DNA of 64,000 bases from Terriglobia bacterium (lineage in GTDB: Bacteria; Acidobacteriota; Terriglobia; JAIQFV01). The position numbers were made by a program, and so were the translations under genes. Location of the stretch: positions 64,196 to 128,195 of the forward strand of contig JAQUPQ010000007.1 of assembly GCA_028716525.1 (NCBI GenBank), in the 5' to 3' direction. Under the pieces are notes generated by a model. It was given only the letters and a program-made list of their open reading frames with translations. It was not told the DNA's origin and did no database searches. Positions 29,423 to 56,752 of this stretch are shown piece after piece (position 1 is the first letter of the stretch; every line of letters begins with the position of its first letter).

Positions 29423-29497
29423 GTGAGCACTTTTGATCAAGCTGGTGAGCAGTACTGGGCTGACACGCAAATTCCCCTGGGGTATAAGAACTGTACC
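29423..29497 (+). promoter_or_regulatory. copy 1 of the conserved ~75-bp promoter module (boxes TGAGCAcTTTTGATCAA / GTGAGCAGTACTGGGC, -35 TGACACGC, -10 GGGTATAAGA)
   Basis: GTGAGCACTTTTGATCAAGCTGGTGAGCAGTACTGGGCTGACACGCAAATTCCCCTGGGGTATAAGAACTGTACC. Lies ~140 nt upstream of the Gln-rich repeat protein gene. Confidence 0.7.
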
Positions 29498-29639
29498 CCG
29501 AGATGCAGCCAGGACCCGGTGGGAGTCGGATGGCAAAAGACAAAGTGCTTATCTTTTCCATTCTCTCTACTGGGATCGTCGTGGCCTCTCTTTTGGGGTT
29601 ACATCCCATGGAACGACCGCATATCTAAGGAGGTGTGCA

Positions 29640-31217
29640 GTGAATCTCAATATCTTGAACCGAATGGTGGTGGCTGTCGTAATCAGCACGGTGTCGTTGG
29701 TGGGATGGACCATACCGACCAACGCCCAGCAACCACCGCAGGAAGAGCAACAACCGCAGAAAGACCAGAAACAGCAGAAAGACAAAAATAAGGAGCAACC
29801 GCCGGCGCAGCAACAACCGCGCGGCCAACAGCAGCCCCAGCAAGATCAAAGCAAACAACCACACCAACAACCTGCTGAACGGCAACAGCAACCGGACCAG
29901 AACAAACAGCAGCAAGAGCAAGATAAACAGCAGCAAAAGGCCCGGCAGCAGGATCAGCAGAATAAACAGCAGGAACAACGGATTCAGCAGCAACAACAGC
30001 GGGTCCAACAGCAGCAACAGCAGGATCAGCAGAACAAACAGCAACAGCAGCAACAACAACAGCAACAGCGCGTTCAGCAGCAGGATCAGCAGAACAAACA
30101 GCAGGAACAACGGATTCAGCAGCAGCAACAGCGGGTGCAACAGCAGCAACAACAACAGCGCGTTCAGCAGCAGGATCAGCAGAACAAACAGCAGGAACAA
30201 CGGATTCAGCAGCAGCAACAGCGGGTGCAACAGCAGCAACAACAACAGCAACAGCAAAAGGACCAGCAGAATAGAGAGCAGCAACAACGCGTTCAGCAGC
30301 AACAGGATCAGCAGAATAGACAGCAACAGCAGCGCGTCCAGCAGCAACAACAACAGCAGCAGCAAAAGGACCAGCAGAATAGAGAGCAGCAACAGCGCGT
30401 CCAGCAGCAACAGGATCAGCAGAATAAACAGCAACAGCAGCGCGTCCAACAGCAACAACAACAGCAGCAGCAAAAGGACCAGCAGAATAGAGAGCAGCAA
30501 CAACGCGTTCAGCAGCAACAGCAGCAGCAGGCTAAGCAACAACAATGGCAGCGGGACCAAAATTGGCAACAGCGCGTACAGCAACAACAACAGCAAGACC
30601 AGAATCAGCAGCAAGCACGCCTCTCGCAACAGCGTCAACAGCAGCTTATTACGGAGCAACAGCAGCGTCTCACTCAGTACCGGCAAAATTTAGATCAGCA
30701 GCAGAGTGTCTGGCAGCGGCAAACATCAAATCTTCAGCGACAAGGGCGCACGGCTCAATACCGTTTTCAGCAGCAATATTGGGACAACGTACGCCAGCAG
30801 CGATTTCGTCTCAATGATCGCCACGATTACGACAATGATCCATACTTCTATACGGCTTGGAACTATCGTTACAAGCGGGGCAACCGCTACTACGAGACGA
30901 ATCAATACGGGGCCAATTTGCTTCGGGAGGCCGTGAGCTACGGTTATGAGCAAGGCTTCCTGGCCGGACAGGCAGACCGGCAGGATCGCTGGCGTTATAA
31001 CTACCAGGCCTCCTATGCCTATCAAGACGCGAACTACGGCTATGACGGTTTTTATGTAGCCCAGGATGAATACAACTATTACTTTCGGCAGGGTTTCCGT
31101 CGCGGCTATGAAGATGGCTACTACAGCCGCTATCGATACGGCAGCTATTCGAGCGGGAAGTACACAATCCTTGGCGCCATTGTGGGGTCAATCCTCGATA
31201 TGCAAGCGCTTCGCTAA
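29640..31217 (+). CDS. secreted Gln-rich tandem-repeat protein with Tyr/Arg/Asp-rich C-terminal domain
   Basis: GTG start after TAAGGAGG. Signal peptide MVVAVVISTVSLVGWTIPTNAQQ. About 380 aa of QQDQQNKQQEQRIQQQQQRVQQQQQQ-type repeats. C-terminal …YGYEQGFLAGQADRQDRWRYNYQASYAYQDANYGYDGFY… ends in hydrophobic TILGAIVGSIL. Confidence 0.7.
   Translation: MNLNILNRMVVAVVISTVSLVGWTIPTNAQQPPQEEQQPQKDQKQQKDKNKEQPPAQQQPRGQQQPQQDQSKQPHQQPAERQQQPDQNKQQQEQDKQQQKARQQDQQNKQQEQRIQQQQQRVQQQQQQDQQNKQQQQQQQQQQRVQQQDQQNKQQEQRIQQQQQRVQQQQQQQRVQQQDQQNKQQEQRIQQQQQRVQQQQQQQQQQKDQQNREQQQRVQQQQDQQNRQQQQRVQQQQQQQQQKDQQNREQQQRVQQQQDQQNKQQQQRVQQQQQQQQQKDQQNREQQQRVQQQQQQQAKQQQWQRDQNWQQRVQQQQQQDQNQQQARLSQQRQQQLITEQQQRLTQYRQNLDQQQSVWQRQTSNLQRQGRTAQYRFQQQYWDNVRQQRFRLNDRHDYDNDPYFYTAWNYRYKRGNRYYETNQYGANLLREAVSYGYEQGFLAGQADRQDRWRYNYQASYAYQDANYGYDGFYVAQDEYNYYFRQGFRRGYEDGYYSRYRYGSYSSGKYTILGAIVGSILDMQALR
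29945..30540 (+). repeat. near-perfect tandem DNA repeats (about three 90-nt units followed by about three 108-nt units) inside the Gln-rich gene
   Basis: Identical blocks occur at 30071 and 30161 (cgttcagcagcaggatcagcagaacaaacagcaggaacaacggattcagcagcagcaacagcgggtgcaacag…). Further blocks sit at 30254, 30362 and 30470 (agcaaaaggaccagcagaatagagagcagcaaca…). Confidence 0.8.
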
Positions 31218-31434
31218 GGACTGCAACGGCGGTATCTGAAACAAGCGCCCGGCTCCATCGACCGAGAAGAGCCAGTGGAGTCGGGCGTACCCCCTTGCGA
31301 GAGGGGGGCAGCCGGAAACATCCATGAAAAACAGACGGACTTCCATTCTGAATTCCAGGGGAGCGTGTGACCCGACCGATTTCTTGGTCCAGCGGGAGAG
31401 CCACCAACACTGAGCAGCACCCTCACAGATTGGG

Positions 31435-31507
31435 CTGAGCAACTTTGACCAACTTAGTGAGCCGTACGGAACCGACACGCGCTTCGCCTTCGGATATACA
31501 CATGATG
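31435..31507 (+). promoter_or_regulatory. copy 4 of the conserved promoter module (variant -10 GGATATACA)
   Basis: CTGAGCAACTTTGACCAACTTAGTGAGCCGTACGGAACCGACACGCGCTTCGCCTTCGGATATACACATGATG. An extra TGAGCAG lies ~25 nt further upstream. It precedes the RcnB-like gene. Confidence 0.65.
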
Positions 31508-31588
31508 TAACGTTGATTCGCTGAGATGTACGCCTACATGAACTCAGGATTTCAAAACGGAAAACTCAATATGACTTGGAGAAAACTT

Positions 31589-32020
31589 ATGAAGACACGA
31601 TGGTGGATGACTGCTTGTGCGACGGCGCTGCTGGCATTGATGTGCAGCGCAGCTGTAGCACAAGACCGGAATGACCATGACAATGACCGGAATCGCGGCC
31701 AGAGTAAGAAGGCGTATCGCCAGTTCAACGAGAATCAACGCCAATACGCGCGCACGTATTACGAGCAGCACCATGACCAGGGCCTCTTTCGACAGGACAA
31801 CCGATGGAACGACGACTACGAAAGCCGGATTCATCCGGGCTACGTGCTCGATAGAGATATGCGCAGGCTGAGTCGGCCGGCACCCTATGATTTGACGCGA
31901 GGTTTGGGCCGTCCTCCTCGCGGCTACCGTTACGTCGTCATCGGCGGACATGTGGTTCTGGTTGACAATGCGTATCGCGTTCATGACGCAATTCACTTTG
32001 AGATTAACGTTGGACATTGA
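31589..32020 (+). CDS. secreted RcnB-like protein
   Basis: Signal MKTRWWMTACATALLALMCSAAVAQD. C-terminal …LSRPAPYDLTRGLGRPPRGYRYVVIGGHVVLVDNAYRVHDAI resembles the RcnB/YohN family signature. Confidence 0.5.
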   Translation: MKTRWWMTACATALLALMCSAAVAQDRNDHDNDRNRGQSKKAYRQFNENQRQYARTYYEQHHDQGLFRQDNRWNDDYESRIHPGYVLDRDMRRLSRPAPYDLTRGLGRPPRGYRYVVIGGHVVLVDNAYRVHDAIHFEINVGH

Positions 32021-32163
32021 CGTAGAAGAGATCCGCTTCCTCACGATGGCTGGCGGCGCGGAATTTACCCAGTACAGAAAGCTGAGATTCTGCGAGCCAA
32101 GTCGTTGTCGTCGCCTCTACGTCACTTGGTAAATATTTCGACAGGGCATTACAAGGAGCAACC

Positions 32164-32346
32164 GTGATGAAGCCAAGCACCAAAAATAAGGCTGAAGGCA
32201 AGTTTCACGAAATGAAGGGCAAGGTCAAGGTGAAAGCAGGACAACTGACGCATAACCCCGATTTGGAAGCCGAGGGCTCAGTTGAAAAGGTGGCCGGGAA
32301 GATTCAAGGAATCATCGGCCGGGTGGAGAAAGCAATCCAACAATAA
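32164..32346 (+). CDS. CsbD-family general stress protein
   Basis: MMKPSTKNKAEGKFHEMKGKVKVKAGQLTHNPDLEAEGSVEKVAGKIQGIIGRVEKAIQQ matches the CsbD KxxGKxKExxGxxT…LEAEG pattern. Confidence 0.75.
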   Translation: MMKPSTKNKAEGKFHEMKGKVKVKAGQLTHNPDLEAEGSVEKVAGKIQGIIGRVEKAIQQ

Positions 32347-32433
32347 CAACACCGGCTCGTAGTCCTAAATAGTTCGTCAAGGGAACTGCGGACACGCCGG
32401 TCAGTGAGTGTAAGTACAAAAAAGGAGCTTAAA

Positions 32434-33123
32434 ATGAAAAGACTTAGTCTGATTTTTCTGTTGTTGACTTTCTGTACAACGTTATTTGCCGGTGAAAGCC
32501 AACTTCAAAAGGCAACCAACGTTGTGAACGAGATCATGGGGACTCCCGACAAAGGTATTCCTGATGAGTTGCTGGAAAGGGCTGTGTGTGTCGGCATCGT
32601 TCCTTCGCAGGTGAAGTTCGCCTTTGGAGTTGGTGGCACTTATGGACGCGGTGTGCTGGTGTGCCGCAAGGGAGGAAACGGGGCGTGGAATGCCCCGTCC
32701 ATGTTCACCCTGGGCGCCGCGAGTGTGGGATTTCAGATCGGCGGTAAGGCAACCGACGTCGTCTTCCTCGTGATGAATCCTGAAGGTATGAAGAAACTGG
32801 TTCAGGACAGCGTCAAACTGGGCGCCGAATTATCCGTAGCGGCCGGCCCGGTGGGTCGTTCCGCCGAAGGCGCCACTGACGCCCAACTCCATGCTGAGAT
32901 TCTCAGCTACTCCCGGACCCGGGGATTGTTTGCCGGGGCCTCGCTCGATGGGGCCGTGGTCAAGCAAGATAGGGAAGACAACGAGAAGCTCTATGGACGC
33001 AAGGTGACCGCGAAAGAAATTCTGATCGACGGCACGGTGCGCGCTCCTCGGGCTGCTCGGGGCTTGAACAGCACACTGACCAAGCACTCCCCCAAGGGTG
33101 GACAAACGTTCGCCCGATTGTAA
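32434..33123 (+). CDS. SYLF (Ysc84-like) lipid-binding domain protein, secreted
   Basis: Signal peptide MKRLSLIFLLLTFCTTLFAG. Core …GIVPSQVKFAFGVGGTYGRGVLVCRKGGNGAWNAPSMFTLGAASVGFQIGG… is typical of the SYLF/DUF500 domain. Confidence 0.65.
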   Translation: MKRLSLIFLLLTFCTTLFAGESQLQKATNVVNEIMGTPDKGIPDELLERAVCVGIVPSQVKFAFGVGGTYGRGVLVCRKGGNGAWNAPSMFTLGAASVGFQIGGKATDVVFLVMNPEGMKKLVQDSVKLGAELSVAAGPVGRSAEGATDAQLHAEILSYSRTRGLFAGASLDGAVVKQDREDNEKLYGRKVTAKEILIDGTVRAPRAARGLNSTLTKHSPKGGQTFARL

Positions 33124-33560: not shown

Positions 33561-35108
33561 ATGAGGGCTCAATGGATTTCCAGAATTCGTCGCGGCATGG
33601 GTGCGGCTTGTGTCACTTTTGTCTTTGCCGCCGTTGGAATGGCTTCTGATCGCGTGGCAGTGCCAGAGGGCACTGTAATCGAATTGCAGACGACTTCATC
33701 GCTCGATTCCAAGACTGCCCAGCAGGGCGATACCTTCTCGACAACCGTTGTGCGCTCGATCTATGTCGATGGCATTCTGGCTATCCCGCAGGCAAGCTCG
33801 GTCGATGGACGGGTGACGAACGCGAGGCCGGCTGTTCGAGATTCTCAGTCGGGTGTGATCGGCGTGGAGTTTTTTCGTTTGAGGCTTCCCGATGGAACCT
33901 CTTATGACCTTTCCGGCGGATTGACCAGCCTGAAGCCGGGTGAGCGTGGAGATAATTCGGGCCGCAATAACGTCTTCATCGGAGGAAGCGGGAAAACGGT
34001 CATTGGCGCGCTGGCCGGTGGTTTATTCGGTACGGGTTCCGGAATGCTCAACTCGTTGTTGTCGGCCGGGTCGGAGGCGCAACTGCCCGCAGGATCCAAC
34101 ATCGCGATGCAACTCGTGAACGCGATTACGATTACGCCGACCGATCCGCAAACTCAGGATCCAGACGAAACAAATCGTCGTACCGTCTATACCTCCACGA
34201 GGATGGTGCGGAGTGCCCAAACGGCGCTGCACGACCGGGATTTCTACAACGGATCCATTAATGGTCAACTGGACCGCCAGACTCGCCAAGCCCTCGCTGA
34301 TTTCCAAAGCCAAAACGGACAGCCGGTGACCGGCGATCTGGACCAGCAGACCGCTGCCCAGCTTGGATTGATCGGGAGCAACCAGGGTTCTGAATGGACC
34401 GATCGTCAGCTTGCCGCCTCGATTTACCGAAAGGCGCAATCGCTTCAGAAGAATTATGAGTCAAGCTTGGGAATTCAGGTCAACGACATCCGTGCGGGGT
34501 TGACCTCCGATCGACTACTGACCGAAGGGGATCTGGACCTCCTGCTCCAGGCCAATAGTTTCTCAAATGCCGCCGCTTGGTATCAGCAAGCTACTGCGAA
34601 TGCCCCCAATGTTGAAGGTCCCAGGATCGCCGCCCACATCCTCGAGAGCAGTGCCCAGCGAGTGGAAGCAGGTTTGCTGAGGACGCAACAAAATTCTCAG
34701 TTCAGGCAACAATGGGCAGGAATCCAGTCAGACTTAAATCGCGTGGGTGTCAACAACTCGGAGGACAACAACTCCGGGTCGGTTCCGGACTACAATTCCG
34801 GTCAGGCTTCGAGCACCGGTCATTTTCAATGGCAAGGATTGGTCGACGGAAGCGATAACATCCGATTGCATGGCTCTCGCGTGGACATGGCCCATTTGAC
34901 CGCGGGGCAAGTTCAGCAGGCCACCTATCAACTCTCATCAGCACTTCCGCTCAGTCCTGTCCAGGTCACCTTGCGCAAGGTCCGTGGAAGAGGCCAGATT
35001 CTTCTGTTGGAACAGCCGACCGCTTCCAATAACTACACCGCGGTGGTTCAAGTGAACGATCAGGACGCTTGGGGAAGTGCGTGGTATGAATTTACGCTTG
35101 ATTGGTAA
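33561..35108 (+). CDS. secreted protein with glycine-zipper segment and putative peptidoglycan-binding (PG_binding_1-like) domain
   Basis: Signal peptide. Gly-zipper VIGALAGGLFGTGSGM. ALHDRDFYNGSINGQLDRQTRQALADFQSQNGQPVTGDLDQQTAAQLGL resembles PG_binding_1. Confidence 0.5.
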   Translation: MRAQWISRIRRGMGAACVTFVFAAVGMASDRVAVPEGTVIELQTTSSLDSKTAQQGDTFSTTVVRSIYVDGILAIPQASSVDGRVTNARPAVRDSQSGVIGVEFFRLRLPDGTSYDLSGGLTSLKPGERGDNSGRNNVFIGGSGKTVIGALAGGLFGTGSGMLNSLLSAGSEAQLPAGSNIAMQLVNAITITPTDPQTQDPDETNRRTVYTSTRMVRSAQTALHDRDFYNGSINGQLDRQTRQALADFQSQNGQPVTGDLDQQTAAQLGLIGSNQGSEWTDRQLAASIYRKAQSLQKNYESSLGIQVNDIRAGLTSDRLLTEGDLDLLLQANSFSNAAAWYQQATANAPNVEGPRIAAHILESSAQRVEAGLLRTQQNSQFRQQWAGIQSDLNRVGVNNSEDNNSGSVPDYNSGQASSTGHFQWQGLVDGSDNIRLHGSRVDMAHLTAGQVQQATYQLSSALPLSPVQVTLRKVRGRGQILLLEQPTASNNYTAVVQVNDQDAWGSAWYEFTLDW

Positions 35109-37041: not shown

Positions 37042-37117
37042 CTGAGCAGTTTTGACCGAACCGGCGAGCCGTATTGGACTGACACGCGAATTGGCCAAGG
37101 GTATAAGAGGTGTAGCC
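37042..37117 (+). promoter_or_regulatory. copy 2 of the conserved promoter module
   Basis: CTGAGCAGTTTTGACCGAACCGGCGAGCCGTATTGGACTGACACGCGAATTGGCCAAGGGTATAAGAGGTGTAGCC. Lies 57 nt upstream of the DUF3309 gene. Confidence 0.7.
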
Positions 37118-37173: not shown

Positions 37174-37329
37174 ATGCTCGCAACTGTTTTGATCGTGGTG
37201 GTACTTTTGATGTTGGTGGGCGCACTGCCCAGATGGTCGCACAGCCGAAGCTGGGGTTATGGGCCCAGTGGAGGGCTGGGCCTGATTGTTGTGATTCTGA
37301 TGGTCCTGCTGCTCTTGGGGCGGCTTTAA
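37174..37329 (+). CDS. DUF3309 family small membrane protein
   Basis: MLATVLIVVVLLMLVGALPRWSHSRSWGYGPSGGLGLIVVILMVLLLLGRL (51 aa). RBS GGGGAGGAGAG. Absent from the ORF track because it is under 60 aa. Confidence 0.7.
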   Translation: MLATVLIVVVLLMLVGALPRWSHSRSWGYGPSGGLGLIVVILMVLLLLGRL

Positions 37330-37484
37330 AGGCCGGAATCTGGTCGGGCGCCTGCGAGTCCCGCTCACTTTAGGGGCTGCGCCGTTGCAGCTCTGACCGA
37401 GAAGCCGCAGGCGATACTCAACAGTGTATGACGGGGAGCGGATGCACAGGCGCCTCCCTCCAAAAACAAGGAGGTCAACAAGTC

Positions 37485-37676
37485 ATGCCTTTACTTCAAA
37501 TATTCTTGGTTCTGATCGTAGTAGGTGTTCTGCTCGGGCTGGTAAATCACTTCGTGCCCATGGCAGGGTCCATTAAGTCGATCTTGAATGCCCTTGTGGT
37601 CATTCTCGTGGTGGTGTGGCTCCTAAATATTTTTGGACTTTTCCATTCCATCTCCAGGATGCACCTGAGGTTGTGA
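37485..37676 (+). CDS. Thivi_2564-like small membrane protein
   Basis: MPLLQIFLVLIVVGVLLGLVNHFVPMAGSIKSILNALVVILVVVWLLNIFGLF. RBS AGGAGG upstream. Confidence 0.5.
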   Translation: MPLLQIFLVLIVVGVLLGLVNHFVPMAGSIKSILNALVVILVVVWLLNIFGLFHSISRMHLRL

Positions 37677-37838
37677 AAAAACATCAGCCGGCGACGGACG
37701 GAACAGCCCGTATGTTCGTCGGAAGCCTTTACAAGATTCACCGATGTTGCTTCGCTTGGACTTCTTCAATCACGGAGTATGCCTGTGTCGCTCATCGTGA
37801 AATTGAACTCTAAGCTCATTAGCGTCGAGGCAACCATG

Positions 37839-38450
37839 AGAATCATACTTAGATCGGCGGTATTCCCGGCTGCCTTGTTCCTGATGCTGGCCGGTTGCAG
37901 CGGAAAACCATCCGACGAGAGTTCGAAGAGTGAAAGCGCCAAGCCTCAGGCCACGCAGGCGGAAACCCAATCGACATCTCAGGGCACCTCGCCCGCCGCG
38001 AAAAAGGCGCCCGAGGAGTCCAAAGCGGTGACTCCTGAGCCGCTCCAGGGCCGCCCTTCGAAGGCTCTCCCGGTGCCGTCCGAAGAGAAATCCAAGACGG
38101 TGTCTGCCGAGCCGAAGAAGTTGCCTACTCAGGACGTCTTCATGTTGAGAGATTCACCACTCGGCGTAGTGAGGTTCGAGCACAAGCTTCACCAGGAACG
38201 GGCAGCACAGAAGTGCGAGACGTGCCATCATGCGTCCCGGGCGGAAAAGCCTGCCAAGGCGGCCCAGCAAAACTGCTTTGACTGCCACACGAAACCCCCT
38301 CAGCCGGGGATGAAAACGGGACGGCAGGCAGCGTTCCACAATCCCACGGCCCAGGCCGGCACCTGCATCGAATGCCACAGGATGCAAAACGCCCAGGGCA
38401 AAAAGGCGCCGACGAAGTGCATGGAATGCCACAAGAAGGAGAACACCTAG
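37839..38450 (+). CDS. tetraheme cytochrome c3-like lipoprotein
   Basis: Lipobox LAGC after MRIILRSAVFPAALFLM. Low-complexity S/E/K/A/P linker. Four CxxCH motifs (CETCH, CFDCH, CIECH, CMECH) within ~80 aa. Confidence 0.7.
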   Translation, partial: RIILRSAVFPAALFLMLAGCSGKPSDESSKSESAKPQATQAETQSTSQGTSPAAKKAPEESKAVTPEPLQGRPSKALPVPSEEKSKTVSAEPKKLPTQDVFMLRDSPLGVVRFEHKLHQERAAQKCETCHHASRAEKPAKAAQQNCFDCHTKPPQPGMKTGRQAAFHNPTAQAGTCIECHRMQNAQGKKAPTKCMECHKKENT

Positions 38451-38579
38451 TTCTATGTTTGATTGCTGTACCCTCGTCCGGAAAGATGTGGCTTTTCTGA
38501 GGGAGGCGTTGGGAAGTTGTCAAAACCAGATTACTCTTGCGATGACCGGTCGGTTTTGTGCAAGCATACGGAGGTTGTT

Positions 38580-39239
38580 ATGGCCCATCAGAAAAGTCAG
38601 CCGGCCGATTGGTCAGTCTTCTTGGCTGGGTTCCCCAGCGAGAAAACCGCTATCCAGTACGGCGCGAACCGCACGATCTTCTCGGAAGGAGAACCCGCGA
38701 ATTCCGTCTTTTACCTTCGAAAAGGCAAGGTGGATCTCGGCGTGACATCGAAGCATGGAAAAGCAGCGATCCTCGCCCATGTGGGCCCCGGTGAGTTCTT
38801 CGGCGAAGGATGTCTCGCCGGCCAGCGATTGCGCATCGCCACGGCTACCACGATGACCCATTGCAAGCTGGTCAGGATTGCCAAGCCGCTGATGGCGCGC
38901 CTGCTCCACGAACAACACGGTTTCTCGGAATTGTTCCTCACGCATCTGCTTTCACGCAACATCCGATCCAAAGTGGATCTCGTCGATCAGCTCTTCAACT
39001 CCACCCAGAAGCGTCTGGCTCGGACTCTCTTGCTGCTGGCTCATTTTGGCAAGGAGAGCCGGGCCGAAAGTGTACATCCCAGAATCAATCAGGAAGACCT
39101 GGCGCGAATGGTCGGCATATCTCGGTTGCGGATCAGTAATTTCATGAAGAAGTTCAAGAAGCTGGGCTATGTCGATTACACCGGCAGCGGTGGGTTGACG
39201 GTTCGTAGTGGCCTTTTGAGCGTGATCCTGCACGACTAG
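38580..39239 (+). CDS. Crp/Fnr family transcriptional regulator (paralog A)
   Basis: cNMP-binding-like beta-roll (…FYLRKGKVDLGVTSKHGKAAILAHVGPGEFFGEGCLAG…). C-terminal HTH EDLARMVGISRLRISNFMKKFKKLGYVDY. No N-terminal Cys cluster. Confidence 0.8.
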   Translation: MAHQKSQPADWSVFLAGFPSEKTAIQYGANRTIFSEGEPANSVFYLRKGKVDLGVTSKHGKAAILAHVGPGEFFGEGCLAGQRLRIATATTMTHCKLVRIAKPLMARLLHEQHGFSELFLTHLLSRNIRSKVDLVDQLFNSTQKRLARTLLLLAHFGKESRAESVHPRINQEDLARMVGISRLRISNFMKKFKKLGYVDYTGSGGLTVRSGLLSVILHD

Positions 39240-39668: not shown

Positions 39669-40247
39669 CTATCTTCCTTCATCACTTGTAGCCGTGTGAG
39701 CGAGCGGCCTATCACCCCTGACGTAGTCGGCGCCGCCCTCTCCGGTTACCGAGATATCCTGTGCTCCGGTCCGCTCCAAGATGTCCTTGGCGCGCTTCGT
39801 CCACTTCGCATTGTCCGAATGCACGGACAGGAGGATTCCGCCCTCTTTGACCCGCACCTCGTAGCGCAGGGCCTTGTGTTTGGGGATTCCCATCCCAATC
39901 AGCGCGCCAGCGATTCCGCCCACGGCGCCACCTGCGCCAATCCCGGCAAGGACCGCCATGATGGGACCGGCGGCGATAAACGGACCTAAACCTGGTATCG
40001 CCAGGGCGCCGATTCCCACGAGCCATCCCAGTGTGCCACCCACCACCGCGCCGGTTCCGGCGCCTGCCGCAGCGCCCTGTGGCGCCTTGGTGCCTTTCTT
40101 GAGGGCAAAGTCCTTGGAGACTGCTTTTTCCGGAAACAGCACGGAAATATCCGTGTTTCGAAATCCGACCTCCTTCAAGACGTCGACGCCGTTCTCCACG
40201 GCGGCGTAGTTCGGGTAAATACCCAACACCGCTATTTTTGCTGCCAT
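39669..40247 (-). CDS. general stress protein 17M (YflT)-like protein with glycine-zipper membrane segment
   Basis: N-domain IAVLGIYPNYAAVENGVDVLKEVGFRNTDISVLF. Long Gly-zipper GTGAVVGGTLGWLVGIGALAIPGLGPFIAAGPIMAVLAGIGAGGAVGG. Repeated C-domain …GGILLSVHSDNAKWTKRAKDILERTGAQDISV. Confidence 0.55.
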   Translation of the reverse strand: MAAKIAVLGIYPNYAAVENGVDVLKEVGFRNTDISVLFPEKAVSKDFALKKGTKAPQGAAAGAGTGAVVGGTLGWLVGIGALAIPGLGPFIAAGPIMAVLAGIGAGGAVGGIAGALIGMGIPKHKALRYEVRVKEGGILLSVHSDNAKWTKRAKDILERTGAQDISVTGEGGADYVRGDRPLAHTATSDEGR

Positions 40248-40311
40248 GTTCGACTCTCCTTCTGGCGTTCGCCGGGCGACCAAGGGCGCCCCCGGCAACA
40301 TCCGCCTGTGT

Positions 40312-40386
40312 CTAAATTCGGGGCACTTCTTTTATAACCCCGGATAAATTGGATGTCAGTCCAGTAGCGCTCACACGTTTGGTCAG
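40312..40386 (-). promoter_or_regulatory. copy 5 of the conserved promoter module (minus strand)
   Basis: Reverse complement reads ATGAGCATTTCTGACCAAACGTGTGAGCGCTACTGGACTGACATCCAATTTATCCGGGGTTATAAAAGAAGTGCC. Lies ~65 nt upstream of the YflT-like gene start at 40247. Confidence 0.65.
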
Positions 40387-40688
40387 AAATGCTCATCGCC
40401 TTTAATCGGCGCAAATACGCGGCGGCTTCCCGTGCCGAGGCTGGTTGACAGAACCTGCGACAGCAGTTCCCAAGCACCCCACCGGACTCACCAACCTGCT
40501 CCATGGAAAGAAAAATCGGTGTGAGGAATCAATCGAGTGTTTCGATGATAATTTGCAGAGGCTTTGAGGAACAAAAGAGAACCAAAACACTTTTTGGCGG
40601 CTGGAGGTCTCTTGAAGGTGGCGTTGTTCACCGATGGTCTTTCTCGGGATCAGGCAGGCGGCGGAGCCGGTAAAAAATTCACAAACCG

Positions 40689-41132
40689 CTAGAAAGTTTC
40701 CGGCTCCGCCTCAGAGAGGGAGGGCTGGTGTTGCAGACTCGTGTTGGATTGACTTCCTAAAATATTCACCAAACTCAAAATTGAATGGCTGCCACAGGAG
40801 AGGCAGTGATCATTCCTGGCCCGGCTGATCATCTGACAGTCTTCGCACAGCACCGCATGGTCGAGCGGTATGAGGTCGACCGGCTCAGACGTCTTCGCGC
40901 GGCGGCGATGGCGCTCCGCGCTCCGCGCCTGGTCGATGACCTTGCGTCCGGCATCTCCCGCGATCAGCGCCATTGTTCTGGGCCATCGCGCCAGCATCTT
41001 GTCTGTCATGTCCTTCTCCTTCGTTCCCGTCTCGTGTACTGGATTGTTCGTCCAAAGATTTCGCTTTTTCCCGACACTTATACCGTTTGTGATTGGGTGT
41101 GTCAGTTCCACATTGACCACGTATCTGGTCAT
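40689..41132 (-). CDS. hypothetical small protein with C-terminal CxxC…CxxC zinc-ribbon
   Basis: …DHAVLCEDCQMISRARNDHCLSCGSHSIL…. True start uncertain (internal ATGs at 41009 and 40997). Confidence 0.3.
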   Translation of the reverse strand: MTRYVVNVELTHPITNGISVGKKRNLWTNNPVHETGTKEKDMTDKMLARWPRTMALIAGDAGRKVIDQARSAERHRRRAKTSEPVDLIPLDHAVLCEDCQMISRARNDHCLSCGSHSILSLVNILGSQSNTSLQHQPSLSEAEPETF

Positions 41133-41556
41133 AAATGTTCATCCCCTTTACGGAAGGCAAACACCCGGATGGGGTCCGCGGAAATTACGAAGGGCTCAAC
41201 AGGGAACAGGCGCGAGGGCAATCTGTGGGTAGCCGAAGAAGGCTTAATTTGGCGCTATTCACCCGTTGAAGGCAATGGGAGCGGAATTCGGATTTCTCAA
41301 AGCCGCTTCAGATTAGCAACTGCCATCATTGGATTCGGAAACGCGGTAGCGCGTGGCCCTAACAAGTTTCAGTAGTTACTCATTTTGAAAATTTCTTTGC
41401 CGGGGTGAGGGTGCCGCAAATTTATTTCAAAATGAGTCACTACCCAAAGCTCTCATTACGAGGAGCGCAGAGCACCGAACCCATCACGGAATGGAGGCCG
41501 GGTTTGCGGAGGATAAGGGCCGCAAAAATACTCGCATTCCCTACTGCGGGGATGCT

Positions 41557-41859
41557 TTAGCTTTGCAGATTCTTGCGCGGCGCCCTGACGTTCCAGACAT
41601 ACAGGAAGTTGGTATCGCTGGCGGTCGCAACTGTCCGCCCGGCTTTGCGGGTTGCGCGGTTCAGGGCTGAACGTACCTTCTCTTTGCTTTCCACCAATTC
41701 CGCCAAGGGCACTTTGATGGCTGAACCATCCTTCAGCTTGTCGAGATCCTTGAGGATGGTGGAGACAATCTGCCGGTGCTTTCCTTTTCGCCCTTGTGGA
41801 ACGTTGGCCTGAGTTATCGTCCTAAAATGGGCTGGAGTTTTGTCAGCCTGTGGACTCAT
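41557..41859 (-). CDS. hypothetical protein
   Basis: 100-aa ORF with no recognised family. Basic and Lys-rich. Confidence 0.3.
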   Translation of the reverse strand: MSPQADKTPAHFRTITQANVPQGRKGKHRQIVSTILKDLDKLKDGSAIKVPLAELVESKEKVRSALNRATRKAGRTVATASDTNFLYVWNVRAPRKNLQS

Positions 41860-42076: not shown

Positions 42077-42090
42077 TTGATAGTCTTCAA
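42077..42090 (+). promoter_or_regulatory. FNR/CRP-like inverted repeat TTGATagtcTTCAA upstream of the second Crp/Fnr gene
   Basis: TTGAT-N4-TTCAA (one mismatch to TTGAT-N4-ATCAA) at 42077-42090. Lies ~20 nt upstream of a small ORF and ~190 nt upstream of Crp/Fnr paralog B. Confidence 0.25.
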
Positions 42091-42112
42091 GCGGAACAAG
42101 AGAGGAAATGCA

Positions 42113-42268
42113 ATGTCAAAAACGAAAAAACCGAAAACTCATTTTCAGCAGGTTCCGCTGGAGATAGTCAAAGTTATCGCTGAACAAGAAATTCCGGACG
42201 ATAAATTGATGGGAAACAACGTGACCGTGAAACCTCCTCAAAAGAGGAAGAGCAGAAGGCTGTCATGA
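42113..42268 (+). CDS. small basic hypothetical protein (possible leader ORF)
   Basis: MSKTKKPKTHFQQVPLEIVKVIAEQEIPDDKLMGNNVTVKPPQKRKSRRLS. Its stop overlaps the start of the Crp/Fnr gene. Confidence 0.25.
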   Translation: MSKTKKPKTHFQQVPLEIVKVIAEQEIPDDKLMGNNVTVKPPQKRKSRRLS

Positions 42269-43026
42269 TGAGCAAACGAATTTCTATCGGAAGATCCTCC
42301 TTCAGCAAGCAGGGGGATGCTGTTACGGCGCGCAACAAAAAAAGGAAACCCGAGGTTATCACGGCAAATCAGAAGAACCAGTCTGTCGATTGGGAAGCCC
42401 TCCTTGCTGGAATCAACGGAGGGAAAACCGTGCTTGAATACACCGCAAACCGCATCATCTACCGGCAGGGAGATCCTGCGGATTCCGTTTTTTATCTCCG
42501 ACGAGGCAAGGTGAAGCTGACGGTGACATCCCAGGAGGGCAAGGAAGCGATCGTCGCCATTCTGGGCGCCGGTGAGTTCTTCGGCGAGGGATGTCTTGCA
42601 GGCCAACTGTTGCGCGTTTCAACGGTTGTCGCGATGAGCGATTGCTCTTTTGCCCGGATTGAAAAGCCGCGGATGGCGCGCATGCTCCACGAGCAGCACG
42701 ACATTTCGGAATTGTTCGTCACGCACCTGCTTTCACGCAACATCCGCTATGAAGAGGATCTGGTCGACCAGCTTTTCAACTCCAGCGAGAAACGCCTGGC
42801 CCGGATTCTTTTGCTGCTGGCTCATTTTGGCAAGGAAGGCCGATCCGAAGCTGTCGTTCCCAGAATCAATCAGGAAAACTTGGCACAAATGGTGGGCACC
42901 ACGCGTTCGCGGGTCAGTCATTTCATGAACAAGTTCCGAAAGCTTGGCTTTGTCGATTACGACGGCCCTACCGGCGGCGGGTTGATGGTCCATAGTGGTC
43001 TCCTCAGCGTGATCTTGCAAGACTAG
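42265..43026 (+). CDS. Crp/Fnr family transcriptional regulator (paralog B, with Lys/Arg-rich N-terminal extension)
   Basis: Alignable along its whole length with the 38580 gene (shared runs GEFFGEGCLAGQ, SELF(L/V)THLLSRNIR, LLLLAHFGKE, HTH …RSRVSHFMNKFRKLGFVDY). Carries a ~35-aa basic N-extension. Confidence 0.8.
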   Translation: MMSKRISIGRSSFSKQGDAVTARNKKRKPEVITANQKNQSVDWEALLAGINGGKTVLEYTANRIIYRQGDPADSVFYLRRGKVKLTVTSQEGKEAIVAILGAGEFFGEGCLAGQLLRVSTVVAMSDCSFARIEKPRMARMLHEQHDISELFVTHLLSRNIRYEEDLVDQLFNSSEKRLARILLLLAHFGKEGRSEAVVPRINQENLAQMVGTTRSRVSHFMNKFRKLGFVDYDGPTGGGLMVHSGLLSVILQD

Positions 43027-43262: not shown

Positions 43263-43337
43263 ATGAGCAATTTTGACCAAACGTATGAGCAGGACTGAAC
43301 TGACCCCGAACGGCTTCCAGGGTATAAGAAATGCACC
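43263..43337 (+). promoter_or_regulatory. copy 3 of the conserved promoter module
   Basis: ATGAGCAATTTTGACCAAACGTATGAGCAGGACTGAACTGACCCCGAACGGCTTCCAGGGTATAAGAAATGCACC. Followed by a ~360-nt leader before the PLC-like gene. Confidence 0.65.
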
Positions 43338-50997: not shown

Positions 50998-51002
50998 TGC
51001 AG

Positions 51003-51068: not shown

Positions 51069-51121
51069 ATTCTCGTATAATTTATCATTCTCACTGAATA
51101 AAAAATCACAACGACGGTGAC

Positions 51122-52600: not shown

Positions 52601-52755
52601 GCAGTGGTGGATTGAAGGTGGGCCAACATTGCGCCATCTGGTGCATGCGAGAGGGTGATCCGCATTGAACGGGCGGCAGAAATCGGTTCGCCGAGGCACT
52701 CCCTCCCGTTCGATTGTCTCGTGCAAGCCAGTGGCTCAAGGTTTTCGGCACTTAC

Positions 52756-53337
52756 TCATTGCTGCCTCCTGACCCCCAAAAGTTGCGCCGGGTAGACGCC
52801 GAAGTTTTCGATTTCGATCACGTTCTGTTTGTTAAAATGAATCTTCGCTGCCGCAAAAAGCGTCCCGCCCATTCCCTTGGCCTCTTCTACAAACAGTTCA
52901 ATGTACGTGAATGGATAATCTTTGGAGCGTGTCCCGTAGCGCGCCTCGAAAAAACTGAGCCAGCGTTCGAAGACGATAGTGTACGTTCGCCCGTTCGGGT
53001 TCTGGTGGACGCGCACGGTGTTGATATCATGGCTGATTTGGCCATCGAGCGCGAATGTGCCCTTCTTTTCCTTGGCGATGGCCTTGAGCAAGGCATCCTC
53101 ACCCTGTGACTTTAGAATGCGCGCGAATTTTCGTGCGTCCTCGTCCGACGTGTATCCTTCAATCGTGAGGGTGAATCCTCGCGAGACCAAGTTTCCTCCC
53201 GGTCCGATGCCGGCGACCGTGCCTGTAAACACTTCCTTGGACGGCCGGGCTTGAGCGTTGCAGGTCCGCGGAAAAATGCTGACCATCCCAAGACCGCAGA
53301 ACATCAGGATCACAACAACGAATAGTTTTGCTCTCAT
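52756..53337 (-). CDS. secreted hypothetical protein
   Basis: Signal/TM segment MRAKLFVVVILMFCGLGMVSI. No family recognised. Confidence 0.4.
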   Translation of the reverse strand: MRAKLFVVVILMFCGLGMVSIFPRTCNAQARPSKEVFTGTVAGIGPGGNLVSRGFTLTIEGYTSDEDARKFARILKSQGEDALLKAIAKEKKGTFALDGQISHDINTVRVHQNPNGRTYTIVFERWLSFFEARYGTRSKDYPFTYIELFVEEAKGMGGTLFAAAKIHFNKQNVIEIENFGVYPAQLLGVRRQQ

Positions 53338-53511
53338 CTTGCCTCCAATCCCTGAAATCGGTCATTCACGACAAGGAACCACCCCTCCGGATCTTCGGCA
53401 CGATCGAAGCCGGGTCGCGAGTTTAGCTTTCGATAGTCGTGGGTGACGAAGCTATCGAAACACACTCGCCCCTGCCTCTCTGGCGGATTGGGGAGGAGGG
53501 CTCGGCGACTT

Positions 53512-53715
53512 TCAAGGCTGCGCTTTGTGAAAGGCGTACAAGAAGACCACAACACTCAGGCCGGCGAAGGCATAGATGAAAGATGTCAACACTCTCGCGG
53601 CAGGAATCAAACCTCGCACAACGCCTAACACATCACCGATCAGACCCGCGATCAACAGGATCGTCACCAGAACCATGCCCACAAGCGCCAGAAATGAACT
53701 TTTCTTCAGTGTCAT
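53512..53715 (-). CDS. small two-TM membrane protein (hypothetical)
   Basis: MTLKKSSFLALVGMVLVTILLIAGLIGDVLGVVRGLIPAARVLTSFIYAFAGLSVVVFLYAF. Confidence 0.3.
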   Translation of the reverse strand: MTLKKSSFLALVGMVLVTILLIAGLIGDVLGVVRGLIPAARVLTSFIYAFAGLSVVVFLYAFHKAQP

Positions 53716-53788
53716 AATCAAAGTATGAACTCGTCAATTCCCCTAGTAATGCTACGTGCTGTTCAGACGCCTGATACAGACAGAGCGC

Positions 53789-54598
53789 CTACTTCTTGTG
53801 GCGCTTTGGTTTTAGGAACACAGCGGCTGCGCGTTCCAGGACGCGGAAGGCGAACGACTCGGTCAGGTAGAGGTAGACCTTATGTTTGTCGTGACCCTCG
53901 TATCCGATCGACAGATCCTGTCCCACGCTGAGCTGAAAGTCGCCCCCGCGATGCGAGAGCAGCACGGCGCCATCGACCTTTGGCGCCAGAACCATCGGCC
54001 CGTCAAGGAAGTGCTCGACGCGCTCACGGATCGGGTAGCCATCCTGCGCGGCCTGGGCCAAACCCGCATAACAGTTCGGTCCAAGCGCCAAGGCATAGGG
54101 TCCATTGATGCCCGCGCGCCGCAGCGTCTCGACGGCGTCCACCACGACGGACGGATAGTCCGCATAATCGTCCGGGATGGCAATGGCCGGATGCAAGGTC
54201 GTAGGGATGATACCCTCAATGCCTCCGGCTTTGAAGCCGTTGAAGATGGCGTTGTCCTCGGCATGCGCTGTCTTCTCCGCGGCACTTACCACCGCTGGAA
54301 GGTCCAGCACAGCGCCGCGCGATGCGTTGTCGAGTTCCATGATTGACAGCTCGAACGGCACTCGCACCTCGATCAAAGGCGCCACCTCGCGCACGCCCCA
54401 CGGCACGCCAAGGTCGCCGTCGGTTCGGATGGTCAGGTGGCCCGTGTTGACCGAGGCATACCTCCACCCGTGCGGGCCGTCGAAATCAACCAGCTTGCGT
54501 CCCGCCAGGTTGAGCTGGAGCACCCGCTTGGCTTCGTCGTCGATTTGCTTCCAGGCTTCGGGCGTAATCGGCGCATGATCGCGCTTCAATAGATCCAT
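53789..54598 (-). CDS. family 1 encapsulin nanocompartment shell protein (Linocin M18-like)
   Basis: MDLLKRDHAPITPEAWKQIDDEAKRVLQLNLAGRKLVDFDGPHGWRYASVNTGHL… is typical of the HK97-fold encapsulin N-terminus. 269 aa. Confidence 0.85.
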   Translation of the reverse strand: MDLLKRDHAPITPEAWKQIDDEAKRVLQLNLAGRKLVDFDGPHGWRYASVNTGHLTIRTDGDLGVPWGVREVAPLIEVRVPFELSIMELDNASRGAVLDLPAVVSAAEKTAHAEDNAIFNGFKAGGIEGIIPTTLHPAIAIPDDYADYPSVVVDAVETLRRAGINGPYALALGPNCYAGLAQAAQDGYPIRERVEHFLDGPMVLAPKVDGAVLLSHRGGDFQLSVGQDLSIGYEGHDKHKVYLYLTESFAFRVLERAAAVFLKPKRHKK

Positions 54599-54601
54599 GT
54601 C

Positions 54602-54964
54602 TCACTTTCCTTTCATGCTGGCGATGCCGAGTGTCTCGGTGGCCACGGGGGCAGGGCCGTCGGTTCCTGCGCCCTTCTCAATTCCAGCGATCGGCTGCTC
54701 GGTGAACAGGTACTTGTGCATCATCTCGTTGAAGTGGTCGCTGTGACGGCGGATCCACTCCATAAGCATCGTGGCGTGCTCAATCTCTTCGTTCTTGTTG
54801 TGCAGCAGCACGTCCTTCAACTGCGGATCGGAACACGCGTCGGCGCGTTGCTGATACCAGTCGATCGCCTCCAGCTCCTCCATCAGGCTGACGATCGCGC
54901 GGTGCATATTGCGCGTGTCCTCGGGCAGGAGATCGAGCGATTCGTGGTACGCGGTACTTGCCAT
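54602..54964 (-). CDS. encapsulated ferritin-like cargo protein (EncFtn) with C-terminal encapsulin targeting peptide
   Basis: Ferritin-like EExxH motifs (…MEELEAIDWYQQRA…NKNEEIEHATMLMEWI…). C-terminal …TETLGIASMKGK matches the SLGIGSLKG-type cargo-loading peptide. It lies 3 nt upstream of the shell gene. Confidence 0.8.
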   Translation of the reverse strand: MASTAYHESLDLLPEDTRNMHRAIVSLMEELEAIDWYQQRADACSDPQLKDVLLHNKNEEIEHATMLMEWIRRHSDHFNEMMHKYLFTEQPIAGIEKGAGTDGPAPVATETLGIASMKGK

Positions 54965-55141
54965 ATGATTATTCCTCTTACGCTTGCCGACGCACCGGGA
55001 CCGGTGCATCGAAGCTATGAATCTCGACCGGTTAGACCGCCTCCAGCGCGAGGTCTTTCTCAAGGCTCTATTCGCTTGGAGGAACGCGTTGCTCATCCCC
55101 CGACACGCGCCTCGCACCAGATCCTCGCGGAGAGCTCGTAA

Positions 55142-55213
55142 GACACTTCTTATACCTTGGGGATAGTGCGCGTCAGTTCAAAACTGTTCACGTGCATGAT
55201 CAAGATTGCTCAT
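55142..55213 (-). promoter_or_regulatory. copy 6 of the conserved promoter module (minus strand), upstream of the EncFtn-encapsulin operon
   Basis: Reverse complement reads ATGAGCAATCTTGATCATGCACGTGAACAGTTTTGAACTGACGCGCACTATCCCCAAGGTATAAGAAGTGTC. Lies ~180 nt upstream of the EncFtn start. Confidence 0.65.
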
Positions 55214-55324
55214 TCCGCCGCCAAGGTCTCGCAGGGCATGATCGGTTCGTTCTGCCCCCGGGGATGCAGGCCGCTGCAGCAACCTGTTACGCGACGAGCT
55301 CCGTTGTTCTTAATGGGCCCGCCA

Positions 55325-55966
55325 CTAGCTGGCGTTCTGTAGGGCGAATTCCCAGTTGATCAGCTTGTCAAGCACGGCATTAACATAGTCGGCACGACGA
55401 TTCTGATAATCCAGGTAGTAAGCATGCTCCCACACGTCAATGGTAAGCAGTGGCTTCATGCCCGTTGTCAAAGGGACATCGGCATTGGCGGTCTTGACCA
55501 CCTTGAGGCTACCTCCCTCGAGGACAAGCCAAGCCCAACCGCTCCCGAACTGTGAAACGGAGGCGCCGGCAAACTCCTTCTTGAAGGCGTCGACGCTGCT
55601 GAAGGATTCCTCGATTCTCTGCTTGAGTGCAGCAGGCGGTTCGCCTCCGCCCTTCGGTTTCATGCTTTTCCAATAAAACGTGTGGTTCCAAGTTTGCGCC
55701 GCGTTGTTGAAGATCGCGATTCTTTCCGGCCGTCCGGCGGTACTGGTAATAATCTTTTCCAATGACAGGTCGGCATATTCTGTTCCTGCAACGAGTTTGT
55801 TCAGGTTGTCCACATAGCCTCTGTGATGTTTCCCATAGTGAAAACTAATCGTCTTGGCCGTTATGATTGGTTCAAGTGCGTTTTCGGCATATGGAAGAGG
55901 GGGTAAGACGTGATGCGGCGCTGCTCCATGCACGGTCGAGGAATAGCCCGTGTCTTTCTTGGTCAT
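55325..55966 (-). CDS. Fe/Mn-family superoxide dismutase
   Basis: …[32 protein letters not shown]…[14 protein letters not shown]…[15 protein letters not shown]… Start ATG 55966 preceded by AAGGAG. Confidence 0.85.
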
Positions 55967-56052
55967 ATCGATCTCCTTAGGGTTGGTGGGTGACACATAA
56001 CGCATGGCATCAGGGCTTGCCGCGGTTAGCGGCAATATTCTGCATGTTGTTG

Positions 56053-56454
56053 TTAGCCGCCCTTTTTCTTTTCTTCGTTGTCTTTCTTGCTTTTTCTGTA
56101 TTCCTCCAGAATCTGTTTCAACCACTCGCCACTGCGCAATTCTTTTCCTTCCTTTGTCCTGATCATGTAGGGTTCGCCCGAGAGAATGCTCTTGGTGGCA
56201 GCAAGGCGGATGAAATCTTCCGGTGTCTTGATCCTGTTTTTGAAATACGAATACTTGCTTCTCAAGTGATCCGACGCTCGTTGACCGGTGTAGGATTGGC
56301 CGTTCCGAATAAAGGTACAATCGGATTGGGCAACGAAAGCCAACAGATAAGCAACCGTGTCATCGGTGTCTTTCTGAGGTCTTGTATCTTGAGCAACGGC
56401 CATAGTCGCAGCAAGAACAGTTGTGATGGCTACAATGATTAAGTTTCTGTGCAT
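56053..56454 (-). CDS. DUF5329 family secreted protein
   Basis: Signal [23 protein letters not shown]. …[55 protein letters not shown]… matches the DUF5329 pattern. It lies directly upstream of SOD on the same strand. Confidence 0.55.
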
Positions 56455-56674
56455 CTTCTCTGCTCGGCTAACTTCTAAGCCCATGGTCTCGAGATGAACC
56501 CATCATCCGGTTTTCCGCCCCGATAACACTGCGATCGAAAACTTGACCCATCCCTCTTTCGTCAACTGATGGGGGTATTTCTGTTTTTATCATGCGCTTA
56601 TAAGGTTTCCATCTAACACGCTTGCGATCGGACTCAAAGAATGCCTACCAGGCTACATACGCCTCAGCGAATTA

Positions 56675-56752
56675 GCGTGCATGTCCTTTATATCCACGGG
56701 CGAAGCGCGTGTCGGTTCAGTACTGCTCACACACCTGGTCAACATTGCTCAG
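56675..56752 (-). promoter_or_regulatory. copy 7 of the conserved promoter module (minus strand; variant closest to copy 4), upstream of the DUF5329-SOD operon
   Basis: Reverse complement reads CTGAGCAATGTTGACCAGGTGTGTGAGCAGTACTGAACCGACACGCGCTTCGCCCGTGGATATAAAGGACATGCACGC. It shares the 16-mer CGACACGCGCTTCGCC and downstream ATTCGCTGAG with copy 4. Confidence 0.65.

Follow-up and report, generated by a model that had tools for sequence, protein, structure and literature searches.

Among described systems, the class II and tandem (class III) CRP- and FNR-dependent promoters of Escherichia coli are the closest to a two-box promoter module that recurs in 64,000 nucleotides of a Terriglobia bacterium (assembly GCA_028716525.1, contig JAQUPQ010000007.1, positions 64,196 to 128,195 of the forward strand). 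This whole stretch is referred to as the window. As in the E. coli promoters, a 16-bp dyad-like site with outer TG and CA lies about 41.5 bp upstream of the predicted transcription start site (TSS) and over the -35 element, and a second site is placed upstream on the same helical face. The regulator linked to the module also takes on the architecture of the CRP/FNR systems, with a cyclic nucleoside monophosphate (cNMP)-binding domain and an HTH_Crp_2 domain. The module is distinguished from its E. coli counterparts by sites that abut (22 bp from centre to centre) and by a -35-like element that is near consensus. Its boxes follow TGnnCAAT.ATTGnnCA instead of TGTGA-N6-TCACA or TTGAT-N4-ATCAA. 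CRP and FNR carry the recognition motifs R-E-x-x-x-R and E-x-x-S-R, respectively, whereas the helix of the window's regulator holds R-S-R-V-S-H; the CRP-side motif was seen in the alignment of the window paralogs to Mycobacterium tuberculosis CRP.

In function, the nearest examples are SdrP from Thermus thermophilus and DdrI from Deinococcus radiodurans, in which likewise a Crp/Fnr protein and not an alternative sigma factor stands over a stress, stationary-phase or oxidative-stress regulon. The activity of SdrP and DdrI may hinge on the regulator's own induced level (PMC12040651), and window-type paralogs are similarly placed behind the regulated promoter. SdrP and DdrI share no close sequence relationship with the window's regulator, and the module differs from their sites in its DNA motif, its stereotyped two-site cassette and its often conserved leader. 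The genes behind the module overlap with the SigB (Bacillus), EcfG (Alphaproteobacteria) and RpoS (Gammaproteobacteria) regulons in CsbD, YflT-like, BON/OsmY-like, superoxide dismutase (SOD), ferritin-like and small membrane proteins. The module promoter, however, departs from the consensus of those systems, and no linked sigma factor or partner-switching module was found.

The module is probably a housekeeping-sigma promoter that would be activated by Crp2-type dimers bound at -41.5 and -63.5, with positive feedback via paralogs encoded behind the same promoter. Literature searches returned neither a Crp/Fnr regulon nor any general-stress promoter described in Acidobacteriota. Nor did these searches turn up an account of the regulator clade, its motif, the regulon or the stereotyped two-site cassette.

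Anatomy and distribution of the module

Seven near-identical elements had been claimed in a preliminary description of this DNA, and all seven are recovered as strong copies with nhmmer (E 5e-25 to 1e-21, with a hidden Markov model (HMM) built from the same seven). A 24-nt core with up to three mismatches matches three times in the window and not once in 100 shuffles. The earlier list was incomplete, as the HMM scan of the window adds two degenerate copies (x1 and x2) and a weight-matrix scan adds an isolated single box. All ten elements are confined to 27.7-56.8 kb of the window, and neither scan found a module or box in the other 35 kb. Measured from the first base of box A, the strong copies start at 29424, 31436, 37043 and 43264 on the plus strand and at 40395, 55212 and 56751 on the minus strand; the start given earlier as 40386 has to be moved by about 10 nt, to ~40395-40397. 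The elements are the following:

27783-27798, plus strand: single near-palindromic box (TGGTCAATTCTGAACA) ahead of a receiver gene, with the -10-like CAATCT 21 nt downstream
29229-29292, plus strand: x1, degenerate module (TAAGCAATTCTGACCC / TGAGCCCCACTGGGCT / GATAAT), located ~195 bp before c1 and probably a tandem duplicate in decay
29424-29488, plus strand: c1, with box A at 29424-29439 (TGAGCACTTTTGATCA) and box B at 29446-29461
29460-29465 and 29483-29488, plus strand: core of c1, -35-like CTGACA and -10 TATAAG, respectively; predicted TSS ~29495
31436-31500, plus strand: c2, with the -10 TATACA
37043-37107, plus strand: c3
40331-40395, minus strand: c5
41077-41141, minus strand: x2, degenerate module (TGAACATTTATGACCA / TGGTCAATGTGGAACT / CTGACA / TATAAG)
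43264-43328, plus strand: c4, with the best box A of the window (TGAGCAATTTTGACCA)
55149-55212, minus strand: c6, with a 16-bp spacer
56687-56751, minus strand: c7

The nine window modules, each ~65 bp long, all share one layout: 6 bp separate box A from box B, each box measuring 16 bp, and a further 20-21 bp lead to the -10 element TATAAr. A cTGACA -35-like element overlaps the end of box B and is separated from the -10 by a spacer of 16-17 bp. Box A (TGAGCAaTtTTGACCA) and box B (TGAGCagTActGaACT) are both 16-bp pseudo-palindromes. With a TSS assumed ~7 nt past the -10, box B would be centred at -41.5, a class II position that overlaps cTGACA, and the centre of box A would lie at -63.5, one 22-bp step upstream of box B. 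In this lineage the box is symmetric at 12 of 16 positions, with the asymmetry at positions 3-4 and 13-14, and perfect palindromes occur in related loci. The palindrome TTGAYCAA that had been marked within box A is palindromic only in the two copies with Y = T, and C takes this position in 87% of 230 instances. That palindrome is off-centre, and the earlier division into boxes sharing TGAGC likewise misses the true symmetry axis, which is the centre of each 16-bp box.

The wider distribution was assessed in a collection with one genome per species, in which a degenerate 41-nt pattern selected at least 118 stretches (809 kb). The HMM finds at least 229 module instances in these stretches, from at least 118 loci and at least 68 assemblies. 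The regulon is not confined to the window but shared across a clade. Carriers among the matches listed are nearly all uncultured Acidobacteriota/Terriglobia metagenome-assembled genomes (MAGs) from peat, fen and soil. Modules elsewhere often occur several per 8 kb in adjacent blocks of one contig, so islands like that of the window are typical. Ten module contigs are labelled Gammaproteobacteria or Acidimicrobiia (L067, MGYR01000062.1; L009, L012, L044, L051, L061, L066, L075, L087 and L109). These labels are probably taxonomic mislabels or the contigs are misbinned, because every other carrier is an acidobacterium.

In the logo of the 229 HMM instances, TGAGCA, TGACC, TGAGC, G..C.GAC and TATAA reach frequencies of 0.9-1.0, and the positions in between are much less conserved. 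This footprint-like logo is not an ascertainment artefact, because the same pattern recurs in 63 instances outside the search pattern. The -35/-10 spacing shifts by 1 nt in ~20% of instances, a variation more in keeping with a promoter than with a rigid RNA or a mobile element. Only 4% of instances have T as the final base of the -10, which suggests a core that is probably weak alone and dependent on an activator.

A core of the same kind without boxes had been reported upstream of the radical SAM gene at 1592. The sequence TGACACGC is indeed present there, but the two do not share an element: positions 1592-1625 (TTGACACGCCTCTACGACAAGGTAAAAT) form a plain near-consensus housekeeping promoter (TTGACA-N17-TAAAAT), and the TGACACGC common to it and the modules reflects the -35 consensus only.

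Linkage to Crp/Fnr-type proteins

The family found most frequently in the 8-kb module blocks is that of the Crp/Fnr homologues (40 of 119 sources and 38 of 118 loci, by clustering of all open reading frames (ORFs) in the module-selected loci). Sigma factors, anti-sigma factors and DNA-binding response regulators are not among the enriched families of the 119 module sources. Three regulatory genes of the window are relevant here:

42265-43026, plus strand: Crp/Fnr paralog 2 (crp2), the candidate cognate regulator, with cNMP-binding and HTH_Crp_2 domains
38463-39239, plus strand: Crp/Fnr paralog 1, which shares 66% identity with paralog 2 but diverges in its recognition helix (MVGISRLRISNFMKKFK)
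27852-28262, plus strand: receiver-only response regulator (ATG at 27852), downstream of the single box at 27783-27798

Both paralogs harbor an N-terminal cNMP-binding domain (PF00027, E 4e-22 and 2e-19) and a C-terminal helix-turn-helix domain (PF13545, E 2e-10 in both). Their best solved relative is M. tuberculosis CRP (E 1e-17, aligned over residues 55-235). An assignment as CRP, FNR or NtcA at the equivalog level is not reached, as NCBIfam scores peak at 67 bits where the CRP cutoff demands 266, and all equivalog cutoffs are missed widely. The recognition helix MVGTTRSRVSHFMNKFR is nearly invariant in the module-linked homologues, and the window's Crp1 deviates from it. The helix reads T-R-S-R-V-S-H, with the CRP/FNR recognition motifs replaced.

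The typical synteny consists of the stop of a crp2-like gene, 100-300 bp and then a module on the same strand. In the window this arrangement is represented by crp2 and c4, which starts 238 bp past the crp2 stop, and the order crp, module, next gene is kept in many genomes. Module control is also probable for Crp1, whose gene closes the c3 operon; no autoregulatory box was found upstream of crp2 in the window. In other genomes the receiver family directly follows a box or module, often in an operon of module, receiver and Crp paralog. Six loci (L029, L048, L049, L064, L042 and L106) hold a module, a receiver-only regulator and a third Crp paralog that is ~50% identical and has the same recognition helix. 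This operon suggests phosphorelay input and positive feedback.

Linkage was also examined in reverse, in 80 metagenome loci that were chosen by the Crp protein alone out of at least 597 relatives. A full module was expected beside crp everywhere and occurs in only 2 of the 80 loci, which led to a search for single boxes with a weight matrix trained on box A instances from other genomes. The matrix gives 81 matches in the 80 loci versus 0.8 in shuffles (~100-fold). Matches are 4.7x denser within 350 bp of crp, where 29 of the loci have one. The single boxes lie either 11-142 bp past the crp stop, pointing away, or 50-340 bp upstream and then more often divergent than not. Some variants are fully palindromic (TGGTCAATATTGACCA, TGAGCAAATGTGCTCA) and point to the general site TGnnCAAT.ATTGnnCA, a dyad with the size and the outer TG/CA of Crp-family sites. 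Of 55 single boxes, 38 are followed by a -10-like nAnnnT at a distance of 21-22 nt (background ~3), in the same geometry as for box B. These relatives have a poor -35 (CAGACn) and an ordinary TAnnnT -10 without GGG. Among the 33 genes behind single boxes are six receivers, three SYLF proteins, two Crp homologues and one Zn-dependent phospholipase C, an overlap with the set of the window. The two-box module is, on these comparisons, a derived, lineage-specific form of a widespread Crp-linked, single-box, class-II-type acidobacterial promoter.

In the alignment of the Crp sensor domains (numbering of the 42265-43026 product), FGEGC (G107, E108, C110) and R117 are invariant; the cysteine C110 might indicate redox rather than cyclic-nucleotide sensing. 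Two further genes adjoin crp2. The minus-strand gene at 41557-41859 is divergent from crp2, encodes a conserved hypothetical protein of 100 aa and is found beside crp in a further 10-11 loci. At 42077-42268 (plus strand), a small Lys-rich ORF ends in a stop codon overlapping the start of crp2. Neither product matched a family, and both could be partners of the regulator.

Explanations for the conserved module

In the favoured mechanism, Crp2-type dimers encoded in the same gene island would occupy both boxes and recruit RNA polymerase. The paralogs behind the same promoter (Crp1 here, the receiver-Crp operons elsewhere) would give positive feedback. The two-box cassette has spread in part by copying ahead of new genes. 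A sigma70-type core with two upstream boxes in class II geometry and local Crp/Fnr candidates had been put forward for the window, which agrees well with a module that is conserved in at least 68 assemblies and with Crp as its most enriched neighbour.

Several observations weigh against this mechanism. Beyond the scarcity of full modules in the Crp-selected loci, 51 of the 80 are without a box within 350 bp of crp, many of them on truncated contigs. The linkage of crp and module genes is not proof of binding. Direct TGAnCA repeats at 10-bp intervals are an equally good description of the boxes; high conservation in the lineage extends to positions 3-4 and 13-14, where the dyad is broken, which would suit regulator classes that bind tandem repeats. 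Box B and box A differ in their centres (CAGTACTG versus CAATATTG), so that separate binders are possible. Finally, the core cTGACA-17 bp-TATAAr is near consensus, which makes repression of a strong promoter possible, and the GGG ahead of TATAA looks SigB-type.

Repression is the alternative that fares best, although it is considered unlikely. A Crp-type protein would then bind as two abutting dimers over -34 to -71 and occlude the -35 of a strong core until a stress signal relieves it. Crp/Fnr proteins are capable of repression, box B overlaps the -35, and the core matches consensus at five of six positions in each hexamer (cTGACA, 16-17 bp, TATAAr). A weak core is nevertheless indicated by the near absence of the final T in the -10, and a second upstream site at -63.5 is typical of activation. 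The single-box relatives, with their poor -35 and a box at -41.5, are likewise typical of activator-dependent class II promoters.

Read as tandem direct repeats, the TGAnCA hexamers lie at offsets 0, 10, 22 and 32 and would be bound by another regulator (e.g., a winged-helix or LytTR-type response regulator), with the crp linkage reflecting shared membership in the regulon. Both halves of each box keep an A at hexamer position 3, at odds with a dyad, perfect examples such as TGAGCAATTCTGAGCA exist, and receiver genes recur beside the boxes. These receivers, however, lack a DNA-binding output domain, and the enriched families hold no DNA-binding response regulator. The fully palindromic box variants also speak for a dyad. 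The 16-bp length, the outer TG/CA and the -41.5 position suit Crp/Fnr sites, and an invariant Crp recognition helix accompanies an invariant motif. The palindromic variants and the missing DNA-binding response regulators nearby weaken a pure direct-repeat (response regulator) explanation, and a tandem-repeat regulator is regarded as improbable.

An alternative sigma factor (SigB-like group 3 or extracytoplasmic function (ECF) type) that reads GAACTGAC near -35 and GGGTATAA at the -10, with the boxes as accessories, is very improbable. It would explain GGGTAT before AA in most copies, a GAAC at an ECF-like position and a gene set that resembles the SigB, EcfG and RpoS regulons. The -35, however, matches neither GTTTAA nor GGAAC-N16-CGTT, the spacing is unfit, and the single-box relatives dispense with the GGG. 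The core instead agrees with the housekeeping consensus that is seen at 1592. STAS-domain proteins behind five modules (L041, L092, L002, L030 and L119) were considered as a sign of a SigB-like partner switch, and this was rejected: in L041 (4830-5790), the locus examined in detail, the module is followed by the STAS-domain gene and directly after it by groES, not by a gene for an RsbW-type kinase or a sigma factor. GroES/GroEL families occur in 11-12 module loci, and STAS-GroES-GroEL may be a chaperonin operon of the stress regulon. The earlier preference for a housekeeping over a general-stress sigma factor is supported, with no sigma or anti-sigma gene enriched nearby and a -35 that fits neither SigB nor ECF factors.

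A dispersed repeat without promoter function, similar to miniature inverted-repeat transposable elements (MITEs) or repetitive extragenic palindromic (REP) sequences, would account for many near-identical copies in one region and for at least one copy transplanted ahead of an unrelated gene, but it is scarcely credible given copies that consistently face a downstream gene, motif-like conservation with variable spacing, orthologous positions kept across at least 68 assemblies and no intra-copy inverted repeat reported (terminal inverted repeats and target-site duplications were not specifically searched for).

Genes, leaders and the spread of the cassette

The downstream gene was defined as the longest ORF that starts within 260 nt after a module; these ORFs were clustered by homology and 150 of them were annotated with Pfam. 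A crude open-frame test of orientation gives 136 modules on the same strand as the downstream frame versus 34 on the opposite one, and it is noisy at this G+C content. Orientation was judged by homology of the downstream ORFs instead. These form recurrent homologous clusters in other genomes, and the copies face them there as in the window, in line with the earlier statement that each element is oriented toward a gene. The Pfam families are Ysc84/SYLF, BON, peptidoglycan (PG)-binding, DUF5670, DUF3309, OmpA, STAS and CsbD, to which LolA-like, ActD/YflT, dodecin and Band 7 proteins are added. SYLF, BON, CsbD, DUF3309, YflT-like, OmpA and STAS-GroESL genes recur behind modules elsewhere, which bears out the coherent stress set that had been proposed for the window. 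The output of the regulon would be general-stress-like, with envelope, osmotic and oxidative protection. The predicted targets in the window are as follows:

29530-29628 and 29640-31217, plus strand, behind c1: small hydrophobic ORF and Gln-rich secreted protein
~31589-33123, plus strand, behind c2: RcnB-like, CsbD and Ysc84/SYLF genes
33561-35108: PG-binding protein gene, probably also driven by c2
~37176-37373 and 37428-37676, plus strand, behind c3: small membrane protein and Thivi_2564-family protein
37779-38450 and 38463-39239, plus strand, also behind c3: cytochrome c3 and Crp/Fnr paralog 1
39669-40301, minus strand, behind c5: YflT/ActD-like protein
40689 to ~41003, minus strand, behind x2: conserved hypothetical protein of ~104 aa
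43431-44987, plus strand, behind c4: Zn-dependent phospholipase C
54602-55117 and 53789-54598, minus strand, behind c6: encapsulated ferritin (EncFtn) and encapsulin
56053-56484 and 55325-56320, minus strand, behind c7: DUF5329 protein and Fe/Mn SOD

The previous gene calls are supported by Pfam and NCBIfam, except that the first gene behind c3 had been called DUF3309 and matched no family in either database. No module-adjacent homologues of encapsulin/EncFtn (53789-55117) or DUF5329-SOD (55325-56484) were found in the sampled genomes, and encapsulin and DUF5329/SOD look like recent recruits in the lineage of the window. Cytochrome c3 (37779-38450) has a module-linked match in one sampled locus only (L044). 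Together, encapsulin/EncFtn, DUF5329-SOD and cytochrome c3 look like genes that joined the regulon in this lineage only.

The secreted protein encoded at 29640-31217 (plus strand) is extremely rich in Gln. It carries a signal peptide (MVVAVVISTVSLVGWTIPTNA) and periodic repeats of 9, 21 and 42 nt, and matched no Pfam or NCBIfam family. Its low-complexity homologues are the commonest gene behind modules in other genomes. The small hydrophobic ORF (MAKDKVLIFSILSTGIVVASLLGLHPMERPHI) between c1 and this gene has similar GTG/ATG-led starts in the homologous leaders of other genomes. Apart from the module region, an AT-rich inverted repeat lies at 16985-17128 between two minus-strand ORFs (49-nt arms 84% complementary, 46-nt loop) in a window of 55% G+C. 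It folds with -55 kcal/mol (z-score -5.8); a terminator, a small mobile element or a small RNA could each account for it.

Past the -10, a conserved leader of ~50 nt (GTGCCTCGAGCTGCCAGCCAGGATCTGGTGGGAGGCGGATG) continues 56 of 241 modules. No leader without a module was found in ~1.26 Mb searched. A single leader class is found ahead of at least 21 protein clusters that are unrelated to one another, and its example behind c1 is:

29489-29542, plus strand: class-I leader of c1 (AACTGTACCCCGAGATGCAGCCAGGACCCGGTGGGAGTCGGATGG)

The second clear example in the window follows c6 (~55095-55148), and weaker versions follow c3 and c5. Pairs of copies that share sequence past the -10 had been noticed correctly but were labelled wrongly: GTAsCCCGmGATGsmGsC is common to 29423 and 37042, and the 16-mer CGACACGCGCTTCGCC to 31435 and 56752. 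Nor do these pairs form two leader subfamilies; there is one widespread leader class besides gene-specific leaders, and a leader of the latter kind has been copied ahead of an operon unrelated to its own. This concerns c7, which shares box A to ~+50 with the promoter of the RcnB-like gene, in two other genomes as well as in the window (c2). The stretch common to c2 and c7 includes the identical 16-mer across the -35 and spacer, whereas their flanking sequences and downstream genes are unrelated. Judged by this shared stretch, the c7 cassette is a copy of the RcnB-like (c2-type) promoter, a case of promoter propagation as in PMC3488235. The putative mobile promoters described there likewise place a homologous promoter ahead of non-homologous genes, as do c2/c7 and the leader class with its clusters. 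The module cassettes differ from them in that they are old, conserved over many species and equipped with a defined regulator site, and are not near-identical recent copies. No transposase or insertion sequence was seen beside the modules, though no systematic test was made.

The leader is hairpin-like in appearance, yet RNAalifold predicts no pairs. A two-helix hairpin that was considered by name is paired at 76.2% versus 75.9% in shuffles, with no covariation beyond chance. Of the conserved transcribed leader that had been suggested, the conservation thus stands, while covariation does not exceed that of shuffles. Rfam gives no match at gathering thresholds or at E<=1 for the whole window and for the surroundings of c3. 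A coding role was rejected as well, as the variation is not codon-like (alignment by eye), and GGATG is not a conserved start codon, since its ATG is not conserved. Candidate roles for the leader are a DNA operator, a stabiliser of the 5' end or an RNA with GGA motifs that is bound by a protein, which would provide post-transcriptional or downstream-operator control. Leader and promoter would move together as one self-contained unit, and new genes would be recruited by copying of the cassette. Somewhat speculatively, promoter and ~50-nt transcribed leader together could be the conserved, copied unit, with the leader as a second control layer and the whole as a "regulon entry ticket" by which genes such as those for SOD or encapsulin are recruited.

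Acidobacteriota and Terriglobia are among the most abundant soil and peat bacteria, and most of them are uncultured. To our knowledge, their stress and dormancy regulation is essentially uncharted. The cassette, which precedes at least nine stress-gene operons in the window, likely points to a master switch of the general stress response in soil and peat Acidobacteria. If so, a large clade of Terriglobia would govern its general stress response through a Crp/Fnr-type activator with a new DNA motif and not through an alternative sigma factor. The motif would then be a direct means to list the regulon in any MAG and would aid the reading of metatranscriptomes from peat and soil that is stressed by drought, oxygen or freeze-thaw, and the copying of the cassette would be a clean natural example of gene recruitment into a regulon.

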